Source of the DNA: Escherichia coli
GTDB taxonomy: Bacteria > Pseudomonadota > Gammaproteobacteria > Enterobacterales > Enterobacteriaceae
Assembly (NCBI RefSeq): GCF_048403405.1
Contig: NZ_CP183129.1
Direction: 5' to 3' (one strand)
Length of the DNA: 64,000 nt
Shown: positions 2,433-55,887 of the stretch, one piece after another
Layout of the letters: the number at the start of each line of letters is the position of its first letter
Numbering within the stretch: the stretch's first letter is position 1
Program-made: the position numbers and the translations under genes
The notes under the pieces: model-generated
What the model was told of the DNA's origin: nothing
The model's database searches: none
The model's input: the letters and a program-made list of their open reading frames with translations, nothing else

Positions 2433-4232
2433 ATGAAGAATATACGTAACTTTTCGATCATAGCTCACATTGACCACGGTAAATCGACGCTGTCTGACCG
2501 TATTATCCAGATCTGCGGTGGCCTGTCTGACCGTGAAATGGAGGCGCAGGTTCTCGATTCCATGGATCTTGAGCGTGAGCGTGGCATTACCATCAAAGCG
2601 CAAAGCGTGACGCTGGACTACAAAGCGTCTGACGGCGAAACCTATCAGCTTAACTTTATCGACACCCCGGGCCACGTTGACTTCTCTTATGAAGTTTCTC
2701 GTTCGCTGGCTGCCTGTGAAGGTGCATTGCTGGTGGTCGACGCCGGGCAGGGCGTAGAAGCGCAAACCCTGGCAAACTGCTACACCGCCATGGAAATGGA
2801 TCTCGAAGTGGTGCCGGTACTGAACAAGATTGACCTGCCGGCAGCCGATCCTGAACGCGTGGCGGAAGAAATTGAAGATATTGTCGGCATCGACGCCACC
2901 GACGCGGTGCGCTGTTCAGCGAAAACCGGCGTTGGCGTACAGGACGTTCTCGAACGTCTGGTGCGCGACATTCCGCCGCCGGAAGGCGATCCGGAAGGCC
3001 CGTTGCAGGCACTCATTATCGACTCCTGGTTCGACAACTACCTGGGCGTTGTTTCACTTATCCGTATTAAAAACGGCACCCTGCGTAAGGGCGACAAAGT
3101 GAAAGTCATGAGTACCGGGCAGACCTATAACGCCGACCGTCTGGGCATCTTCACGCCAAAACAGGTTGACCGTACTGAACTGAAATGCGGCGAAGTAGGC
3201 TGGCTGGTATGTGCGATTAAAGATATCCACGGCGCTCCAGTAGGCGATACCTTAACGCTGGCGCGTAATCCGGCAGAAAAGGCGCTGCCTGGCTTTAAGA
3301 AAGTCAAACCGCAGGTATACGCCGGTCTGTTCCCGGTAAGTTCCGACGACTATGAAGCCTTCCGTGATGCGCTGGGTAAACTCAGCCTGAACGATGCCTC
3401 ACTGTTCTATGAGCCGGAAAGCTCAAGCGCGCTGGGCTTTGGTTTCCGCTGCGGCTTCCTCGGTCTGCTGCACATGGAGATCATCCAGGAACGTCTGGAA
3501 CGTGAATACGATCTGGATCTGATTACCACTGCGCCGACCGTAGTGTATGAAGTTGAAACCACGTCAAGAGAAGTTATCTACGTCGACAGCCCATCCAAGC
3601 TGCCAGCGGTAAATAACATCTACGAACTGCGCGAGCCGATTGCAGAATGTCACATGCTGCTGCCGCAGGCATATCTCGGCAACGTTATTACGCTGTGCGT
3701 AGAAAAACGCGGCGTGCAGACCAATATGGTTTACCACGGTAATCAGGTGGCGCTGACGTACGAGATCCCGATGGCGGAAGTGGTGCTCGATTTCTTCGAT
3801 CGCCTGAAATCTACCTCGCGTGGTTATGCGTCTCTGGATTACAACTTCAAACGCTTCCAGGCGTCCGACATGGTACGTGTAGACGTATTAATCAACGGTG
3901 AACGTGTTGATGCGCTGGCGTTGATCACCCACCGTGATAATTCGCAAAACCGCGGTCGCGAGCTGGTGGAGAAGATGAAAGATCTAATCCCACGCCAGCA
4001 GTTTGATATCGCTATTCAGGCAGCGATTGGTACGCACATCATTGCGCGCTCCACCGTGAAACAGCTGCGTAAAAACGTACTGGCTAAATGTTATGGCGGC
4101 GATATCAGCCGTAAGAAAAAGCTGCTGCAGAAGCAGAAAGAAGGTAAGAAACGCATGAAGCAGATCGGTAACGTCGAGCTGCCGCAGGAAGCGTTCCTCG
4201 CCATTCTGCACGTCGGCAAAGACAACAAATAA
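2433..4232 (+). CDS. lepA: translation elongation factor 4 (LepA), 599 aa
   Basis: GTPase motifs [17 protein letters not shown] and NKID at the N-terminus; length and context upstream of lepB. Confidence 0.95.
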
Positions 4233-4247
4233 CCCTTAGGAGTTGGC

Positions 4248-5222
4248 ATGGCGAATATGTTTGCCCTGATTCTGGTGATTGCCACACTAGTGACGGGCAT
4301 TTTATGGTGCGTGGATAAATTCTTTTTCGCACCTAAACGGCGGGAACGTCAGGCAGCGGCGCAGGCGGCTGCCGGTGACTCACTGGATAAAGCAACACTG
4401 AAAAAGGTTGCGCCGAAGCCTGGCTGGCTGGAAACCGGTGCTTCTGTTTTTCCGGTGCTGGCTATCGTATTGATTGTGCGTTCGTTTATTTATGAACCGT
4501 TCCAGATCCCGTCAGGTTCGATGATGCCGACTCTGTTAATCGGTGATTTTATTCTGGTAGAGAAGTTTGCTTATGGCATTAAAGATCCTATCTACCAGAA
4601 AACGCTGATCGAAACCGGTCATCCGAAACGCGGCGATATCGTGGTCTTTAAATATCCGGAAGATCCAAAGCTTGATTACATCAAGCGCGCGGTGGGTTTA
4701 CCGGGCGATAAAGTCACTTACGATCCGGTCTCAAAAGAGCTGACGATTCAACCGGGATGCAGTTCCGGCCAGGCGTGTGAAAACGCGCTGCCGGTCACCT
4801 ACTCAAACGTGGAACCGAGCGATTTCGTTCAGACCTTCTCACGCCGTAATGGTGGGGAAGCGACCAGCGGATTCTTTGAAGTGCCGAAAAACGAAACCAA
4901 AGAAAATGGAATTCGTCTTTCCGAGCGTAAAGAGACACTGGGTGATGTGACGCACCGCATTCTGACAGTGCCGATTGCGCAGGATCAGGTGGGGATGTAT
5001 TACCAGCAGCCAGGGCAACAACTGGCAACCTGGATTGTTCCTCCGGGACAATACTTCATGATGGGTGACAACCGCGACAACAGCGCGGACAGCCGTTACT
5101 GGGGCTTTGTGCCGGAAGCGAATCTGGTCGGTCGGGCAACGGCTATCTGGATGAGCTTCGATAAGCAAGAAGGCGAATGGCCGACAGGTGTGCGCTTAAG
5201 TCGCATTGGCGGCATCCATTAA
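4248..5222 (+). CDS. lepB: signal peptidase I (324 aa)
   Basis: ORF 4248..5222; two N-terminal transmembrane segments; catalytic-Ser box SGSMMPTL; C-terminal GDNRDNSADSRYWGFV box. Confidence 0.95.
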   Translation: MANMFALILVIATLVTGILWCVDKFFFAPKRRERQAAAQAAAGDSLDKATLKKVAPKPGWLETGASVFPVLAIVLIVRSFIYEPFQIPSGSMMPTLLIGDFILVEKFAYGIKDPIYQKTLIETGHPKRGDIVVFKYPEDPKLDYIKRAVGLPGDKVTYDPVSKELTIQPGCSSGQACENALPVTYSNVEPSDFVQTFSRRNGGEATSGFFEVPKNETKENGIRLSERKETLGDVTHRILTVPIAQDQVGMYYQQPGQQLATWIVPPGQYFMMGDNRDNSADSRYWGFVPEANLVGRATAIWMSFDKQEGEWPTGVRLSRIGGIH

Positions 5223-5234
5223 TAGCCCATCTTC

Positions 5235-5276
5235 ATTCACGTTGTCGCCGTTATGGCGACAACGTGAATTATTTAT
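5235..5276 (+). terminator. intrinsic terminator downstream of lepB
   Basis: 15-bp inverted repeat attcacgttgtcgcc / ggcgacaacgtgaat (5235-5249 / 5255-5269) followed by an AT-rich tract. Confidence 0.5.
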
Positions 5277-5367
5277 GAGATAAATCTCCCGTGGCTAACG
5301 ACATCCCCCGTCGTTGTGTATAGAATATTCCCCCGAAGTTTAAGGTTGGCACCTCCAGGTTGCCACG

Positions 5368-5461
5368 GCACACGAAACAGCGTTGGTCCCCATATACCGG
5401 TAAACTGAAACTGCAGCGAAGCAGTTAGCAGAACCATGTATATCAGGTCTGTTTCGTGTGC
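5368..5461 (+). promoter_or_regulatory. rnc leader long-range stem (candidate RNase III autoregulatory processing hairpin)
   Basis: Perfect 13-bp inverted repeat gcacacgaaacag (5368-5380) / ctgtttcgtgtgc (5449-5461) in the 5' UTR ending about 35 nt upstream of the rnc ATG. Confidence 0.45.
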
Positions 5462-5464
5462 TGA

Positions 5465-7077
<1,613 letters not shown>

Positions 7078-7088
7078 GAGTAACTCCG

Positions 7089-7817
7089 ATGGAAGGCTGG
7101 CAGCGCGCATTTGTCCTGCATAGTCGCCCGTGGAGCGAAACCAGCCTGATGCTGGACGTCTTCACGGAGGAATCGGGTCGCGTGCGTCTGGTTGCCAAAG
7201 GCGCACGCTCTAAACGCTCTACTCTGAAAGGTGCATTACAGCCTTTCACCCCTCTCTTGCTACGTTTCGGCGGGCGTGGCGAAGTCAAAACGCTGCGCAG
7301 TGCTGAAGCCGTCTCGCTGGCGCTGCCATTAAGCGGTATCACGCTTTACAGCGGTCTGTACATCAACGAACTTCTCTCCCGCGTACTGGAATACGAGACG
7401 CGCTTCTCTGAACTCTTTTTCGATTACTTGCACTGCATTCAGTCTCTTGCAGGTGCCACTGGTACGCCAGAACCCGCGCTGCGCCGCTTTGAACTGGCAC
7501 TGCTCGGGCATCTGGGCTATGGCGTCAATTTTACCCATTGTGCGGGTAGCGGCGAGCCGGTAGATGACACCATGACGTATCGTTATCGCGAAGAAAAAGG
7601 GTTTATCGCAAGCGTCGTTATCGACAATAAAACGTTCACCGGAAGGCAGTTAAAAGCGTTAAACGCGCGGGAATTTCCTGACGCAGACACACTGCGCGCC
7701 GCGAAACGCTTTACCCGCATGGCGCTTAAGCCGTATCTTGGCGGTAAACCATTAAAGAGCAGGGAACTGTTCCGGCAGTTTATGCCTAAGCGAACGGTGA
7801 AAACACATTATGAATGA
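7089..7817 (+). CDS. recO: DNA repair protein RecO (242 aa)
   Basis: ORF 7089..7817; conserved position between era and pdxJ. Confidence 0.9.
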
Positions 7818-55784: not shown

Positions 55785-55871
55785 GACGAGATACACTTGC
55801 AGTAATACAACCTGCTGGAAAGGCCGCGAACCAGACCAGCAATAAAAAACCGCCAAATTCGGCGGTTTTTT
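55785..55871 (+). ncRNA. candidate sRNA, module 2, paralog of module 1 (approximate)
   Basis: TTGACA (55750-55755)-18 bp-AGTATT, then a shared core ctgctggaaaggccgcgaacca-accagcaa and terminator ccgcc-aaattc-ggcgg + TTTTTT (55850-55871); lacks the 17-nt complementary box. Confidence 0.4.
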
Positions 55872-55887
55872 ATTGCCTGTAAAAAGC

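Follow-up and report, generated by a model that had tools for sequence, protein, structure and literature searches.

A 13-bp inverted repeat in the rnc leader of Escherichia coli is part of the lower helix of rncO stem-loop II

The window, a 64,000-nt stretch of the E. coli contig NZ_CP183129.1, carries the gene order lepA-lepB-rnc-era-recO, in which rnc (5495–6175, + strand) encodes the 226-aa RNase III and is followed downstream by era (6172–7077) and recO (7089–7817). Within window region 4900–5900 the spacer between lepB and rnc measured 272 nt. Just 3′ of the lepB stop codon this spacer contains a hairpin on the + strand (5235–5269) with a perfect 15-bp stem and a 5-nt loop followed by a T-run, and this terminator-like structure, separate from rncO, would delimit the rnc transcription unit on its upstream side. 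A promoter-like sequence, ACGACA-17 nt-TAGAAT (5298–5326, + strand), was recognized by consensus match only; its −10 element ends 9 nt before the transcript start. Of 5426 complete E. coli genomes, 5425 contained the 361-nt spacer region, beneath annotated lepB and rnc.

An Rfam scan identified rncO (RF00552) directly upstream of rnc and on the same strand, at 5335–5549, with a score of 258.8 bits (gathering threshold 43; E = 3e-61) and a match which ran end to end over model positions 1–214. The entire element therefore comprises the 160-nt 5′-UTR and the first 55 nt of rnc, which is the gene under its control. Model position 1 falls on 5335, consistent with published constructs, of which one places the beginning of the rnc transcript at −160, counted from the start codon (PMC4191395), and another takes nt 1–160 as the rnc UTR (PMC10037077). 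Leader nucleotide numbers given below count 5335 as transcript +1. The leader at 5291–5500 was identical to that of K-12 strain C600, and the K-12 rncO and the element in the window share the same sequence, site, strand and layout of three stem-loops, with no difference in the window. This is thus a known element, the long-described rncO operator curated in Rfam, and reportedly it was described in E. coli K-12 by Bardwell et al. 1989 and by Matsunaga, Simons and Simons 1996. Since rncO has been characterized since 1989–1996 and is curated, its rediscovery in this E. coli window adds nothing new in itself.

The Rfam structure line and the minimum free energy (MFE) and centroid folds gave three stem-loops on the + strand, I, II and III, with II as the long central one and the sole long hairpin of the 160-nt UTR. 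Stem-loop I (5347–5365) has 7 bp and a one-base bulge, and stem-loop III (5515–5534), with 8 bp and the loop AACG, lies in the first codons of rnc; both are drawn from the Rfam structure line. The lower helix of stem II is formed by a 15-nt 5′ strand (5366–5380) and a 15-nt 3′ strand (5449–5463). Above it the MFE folds placed a 2 × 2 internal loop and a short helix, with CG and UUGG(U) on the 5′ side (5381–5387) and (A)UCAG and GU on the 3′ side (5442–5448). The pairs of this short helix were kept in 73–77 of 77 leaders, and the Rfam drawing differs slightly at this point. The apical arm of stem II occupies 5388–5441, and behind the hairpin an AU-rich, unpaired 3′ leader (5464–5494, AAUUGUUGACGCAUUUAUUUAUUGGUAUCGC) reaches to the start codon.

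The initial annotation had reported a perfect 13-bp inverted repeat enclosing about 68 nt just upstream of the rnc start and had expected this to be where RNase III acts to autoregulate rnc-era-recO. The coordinates, complementarity and spacing proved exact: the repeat finder returned arms of 13 nt each, GCACACGAAACAG (5368–5380) and CTGTTTCGTGTGC (5449–5461), which are 100% complementary and 68 nt apart, and 33 nt separate the end of the right arm from the rnc ATG at 5495. The repeat is part of the lower helix of the central stem-loop II of rncO. Folding added two pairs at its base, C5366-G5463 and G5367.U5462, to give the 15-bp helix 5366–5380/5449–5463, which was reproduced by MFE and centroid folds both of the whole leader and of the isolated hairpin. 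The isolated hairpin (5366–5463) had a folding energy of −40.9 kcal/mol, with z = −5.5 relative to shuffles. The opposite strand in the window was slightly more stable, −45.4 compared with −40.9 kcal/mol, and strand asymmetry is therefore non-discriminating here. The window contained three perfect inverted repeats with arms of 13 bp or more and a loop of 3–100 nt, as against a mean of 0.12 per dinucleotide shuffle, but because 11.5% of the dinucleotide-shuffled windows contained at least one such repeat, the bare 13-bp repeat is only mildly improbable. We regard the repeat as real because of the z score of the fold together with the full-length Rfam match and the conservation in 78 distinct leaders. 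A further perfect 13-bp inverted repeat was seen at 55839–55876 (GCAATAAAAAACC/GGTTTTTTATTGC, 12-nt loop) and has a terminator-like look.

For the comparative analysis 80 rnc loci of other Enterobacteriaceae were gathered with the RNase III protein as query, so that the leaders were not pre-selected, and nine distant Enterobacterales loci were taken from protein matches (Photorhabdus, Xenorhabdus, Proteus, three Serratia, Symbiopectobacterium, Sodalis and Limnobaculum). The rncO model matched end to end in all 20 Enterobacteriaceae genera tested, with 151–231 bits, and in all nine distant loci, with scores from 154 down to 43.5 bits. Among the 78 distinct leaders standard pairs were found in 92.7% of cells, compared with 32–47% when the 3′ partners were slid by 1–3 columns. 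The covariation score was 0.133 as against at most 0.076 in the controls, and none of 500 shuffles reached the observed values. Each of the three helices was paired in 87–95% of cells, and 13 of their 34 pairs had changed on both sides. Comparison for compensatory changes, which the initial annotation had proposed as a check, thus supported the structure as a whole, and within the repeat this support comes from two pairs. One is nt 45/116, which is C-G in 35 leaders and A-U in 33, and the other is nt 41/120, with A-U in 60, C-G in three and G-C in one. Most pairs of the repeat are uninformative on pairing either way because they vary little or not at all. Support from covariation was strong for stem I, where five of seven pairs had changed on both sides and pairing was held largely through compensatory change. 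Stem-loop III was paired in 92% of cells, a value which is confounded by the region being coding.

Within Enterobacteriaceae the lower stem of stem-loop II was 94.8% identical to E. coli. Stem I came to 65% and the four-fold synonymous sites of rnc to 59%, so that the constraint on the lower helix acts on its sequence and goes beyond what pairing would require. Lack of conservation of the stem had been named as evidence against the initial annotation; the stem is in fact among the best-conserved parts of the leader. The segment 5464–5494 was likewise about 94% identical across Enterobacteriaceae, a figure which refers to alignment columns 171–228 and so includes the first ~20 nt of rnc. Atlantibacter, Siccibacter and Franconibacter have A.C mismatches in the stem, and Morganellaceae and Serratia have A.G or A.A. 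Fixed mismatches of the lower helix occur in loci outside Enterobacteriaceae (L081–L083, L085 and L088): where GCAAACG stands opposite CGUGUGC or CGUAUGC, repeat pair 4 is A.G or A.A, and at repeat pair 8 Serratia marcescens and Symbiopectobacterium have A.C, whereas Morganellaceae show a compensatory change from A-U to C-G.

The conserved core of stem-loop II consists of the 15-bp helix, the 2 × 2 internal loop (CG/GU) and a 4-bp helix (UUGG/UCAG), and a core of 15 bp, 2 × 2 loop and 4–5 bp was kept in all Enterobacteriaceae leaders. The segment above it differed widely in size. In most genera, including Enterobacter, Kluyvera, Lelliottia, Atlantibacter, Siccibacter and Trabulsiella, and also in K. 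oxytoca, a loop of 5–10 nt sits on top of the core, giving a hairpin of 47–52 nt. Escherichia, Salmonella and most Citrobacter carry an extra arm which brings the hairpin to 88–104 nt, the Raoultella hairpin measures 120–122 nt, and size classes vary even inside Citrobacter and Kosakonia. The arms of the outgroups enclose 25–44 nt, so the short form is probably ancestral, and the E. coli-type apical arm looks, from the leader sequences, like a lineage-specific expansion. The lower 15 bp and the four pairs directly above them did not differ among 18 leaders from Escherichia, Citrobacter and Salmonella. The fifth pair of the upper helix in these leaders was G.U in 15, A-U in two and U.G in one, and the enclosed segment was heavily diverged, with a small helix and terminal hairpin kept through compensatory changes. 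Across species the arms of the repeat stay paired despite an enclosed segment of 17–92 nt, and the apical part of stem II is much more variable than in the E. coli-centred picture of rncO. The right arm started 46–47 nt 5′ of the rnc ATG in all Enterobacteriaceae loci, and the left arm lay anywhere from −76 to −151.

According to previous studies, the 5′-UTR of the RNase III message contains a hairpin, described as long or as irregular, which the enzyme itself cleaves, and this cleavage yields a new, unstructured 5′-monophosphate end which is recognized by RNase E (PMC3867540; PMC10582724; PMC5371410). The cut rnc-era message decays faster, and abundant substrates titrate the scarce enzyme and so relieve the repression (PMC3867540; PMC5371410; PMC10582724; PMC8708148). 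A hybrid guide RNA which carried rnc leader nt 1–129 was cleaved by RNase III in vivo (PMC10037077). These nucleotides correspond to 5335–5463 in the window and end exactly on the last paired base of stem II. With the full-length rncO match and the placement of the repeat in the lower helix of stem-loop II, the expectation of an RNase III autoregulatory site at this locus is supported. We put the probability at about 0.93 that the repeat is the base of rncO stem-loop II serving as the RNase III-cleaved leader operator of the rnc-era-recO mRNA, where the cleavage itself is taken from the literature.

The mechanism, with its cleavage and decay steps taken from these studies, would begin on the transcript from 5335, where the two arms would pair to form the 98-nt irregular hairpin 5366–5463. 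RNase III, the product of the downstream gene, would bind and cleave this hairpin, and the cut would strip the structured 5′ end and leave a 5′-monophosphorylated, largely unpaired leader open to attack by RNase E. Faster decay of the mRNA would then lower the output of RNase III, Era and RecO. While rRNA precursors or other abundant substrates keep RNase III busy, fewer leaders would be cut and expression would go up. The segment 5464–5494 would probably be the stretch exposed to RNase E after the cut, and probably also the ribosome-binding region. In this way rncO determines how much of the global RNA-processing regulator RNase III a cell contains, and through the shared transcript also how much of the essential GTPase Era and of RecO.

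An RNase III substrate has a minimum of ~11 bp and in its idealized form has 22 bp, cut at the centre, with an internal loop possible (PMC3867540). Stem I, with 7 bp, is under this minimum, and the conserved core of stem-loop II (~21 helical positions, counting 15 bp, the 2 × 2 loop and 4 bp) fits the size of the idealized substrate. From this geometry and the need for an unstructured downstream product, we infer that the cut may fall within or next to the GAAAC/GUUUC stretch of the repeat, around the middle of the ~21-position core. The E. coli helix goes on above the repeat, so that other double-stranded targets exist, and RNase III could instead cut the apical arm at 5388–5441 while the repeat merely holds the arms together as part of a passive 5′ stabilizer or spacer. 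We consider this unlikely. Most genera are without the apical arm and have a hairpin of only 47–52 nt, but they still match rncO and still have the lower stem, and if autoregulation is conserved in these arm-less genera the target must be in the conserved core. A cut above the 15-bp helix would moreover leave a product which is still tightly paired, contrary to the "unstructured 5′-end" (PMC3867540). Finally, the near-invariance of the lower stem in sequence, 95% as against 65% in stem I, which is kept by covariation alone, suggests recognition beyond pairing.

A further possibility, which we offer tentatively and hold at less than even odds when its three parts are taken together, is that the operator on which RNase III acts was ancestrally, and can be, just a core of ~47 nt (the 15-bp helix, the 2 × 2 loop, the 4-bp helix and a small loop). 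The 54-nt apical arm of E. coli would then be a lineage-specific add-on which was repeatedly gained, lost or resized and which tunes the set-point of autoregulation, and the near-invariant lower helix (95% as against 59% at neutral sites) might encode a sub-maximal reactivity towards RNase III through its base-pair content. What the comparison adds to the known operator is modest, namely a lower helix conserved in sequence and an apical arm which is evolutionarily disposable, and these two features narrow down where recognition and cleavage must occur.

The phage T7 R1.1-type signals are irregular hairpins of ~20 bp with an internal loop, and the rncO core is of that size and shape. In these signals the base-pair content of the proximal and distal boxes sets the reactivity (PMC3867540; PMC1540722). 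They mature or stabilize phage mRNAs and do not act as a feedback operator, and they are without sequence similarity to rncO. The rpsO-pnp leader, which is involved in the autoregulation of pnp, resembles the rnc leader in having a long hairpin whose cleavage by RNase III speeds decay of the downstream message (PMC5371410). It belongs to another gene and has another sequence, and feedback there is exerted by PNPase on the leader cut by RNase III, whereas the product under control in rnc is the very enzyme which makes the cut. In the rne 5′-UTR a ribonuclease also controls the decay of its own mRNA by way of a structured 5′-UTR (PMC3997798), but RNase E is single-strand-specific and the structure and family differ from those of rncO.

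A strong, G+C-containing hairpin between two genes could also be an intrinsic terminator or attenuator which blocks read-through from lepB or ends rnc transcripts early. The stem has no T-run behind 5463, where the following sequence is AATTGTTGACGC, the rnc transcript begins upstream of the hairpin, and a terminator scan of this interval returned only the lepB hairpin at 5235–5269 and none at stem II. A terminator or attenuator is thus highly improbable and effectively refuted.

Equally improbable is that the arms form a DNA palindrome, acting as an operator for a dimeric protein or as a recombination site without any RNA structure. In favour of such a site, both arms are nearly invariant, symmetric changes in its half-sites would mimic covariation, and in the window both strands fold about equally well. 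The arm spacing, however, varies five-fold among species (17–92 bp), which is incompatible with a fixed protein-DNA geometry, and pairing kept at variable spacing is consistent with an RNA hairpin, not with a DNA site whose geometry is fixed. Only on the + strand, moreover, is the helix lengthened by conserved G.U wobbles; 56 sequences have G.U at nt 33/128, and further wobbles occur at 49/112 and 52/109. The + strand was the more stable one in 66 of 77 leaders, the window itself not being among them, and the rncO model scored 258.8 bits on the + strand compared with 23.9 bits on the − strand. The minus-strand match, sub-threshold with its 23.9 bits, was rejected as the mirror image of a near-palindromic hairpin.

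A functionless chance repeat, for which the frequency of such repeats in shuffled windows could be cited, is refuted by conservation, with compensatory change, across Enterobacterales, far above the neutral benchmark, and by the full-length match to a curated family, and we give this explanation practically no weight.

A leader peptide was also considered and rejected, since the open reading frames of the leader on the + strand have just 20–30 codons and the ATG of the candidate at 5436–5498 is absent outside Escherichia. This 20-codon upstream reading frame (+ strand) has its ATG in the apical arm of stem II, and its stop codon TGA and the rnc start share the sequence ATGA. Its own ATG is missing in Citrobacter, in Salmonella and in the short-form leaders, and the reading frame is for this reason probably meaningless.

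Several minor observations were made in the relatives and in database entries. A contig labelled Chryseobacterium sp. 18061 (CACSKA010000009.1) has an Enterobacter-like lepB-rnc region, with RNase III at 97% identity and a short-form rncO, and probably the assembly is contaminated or carries the wrong label. In a Klebsiella oxytoca locus (L075, 3109–3200) Rfam reported AaHKsRNA22 (RF02902) where recO begins, with 48.5 bits, above its threshold of 39.8; no match to this family was found by the Rfam scan in E. coli window region 4000–7500, and the K. oxytoca match is probably a false positive in coding sequence. The Limnobaculum locus (L086, Budviciaceae), whose rncO match of 43.5 bits is right at the threshold, has an extra ORF of 186 aa between rnc and era (2264–2824) which breaks the usual overlapping junction and has no Pfam match. 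Many database entries for RNase III (P0007–P0015) are 282–283 aa long and extend 56–57 residues further at the N terminus than the 226-aa protein; these look like start-codon misannotations, with calls which start inside the leader and read through rncO.
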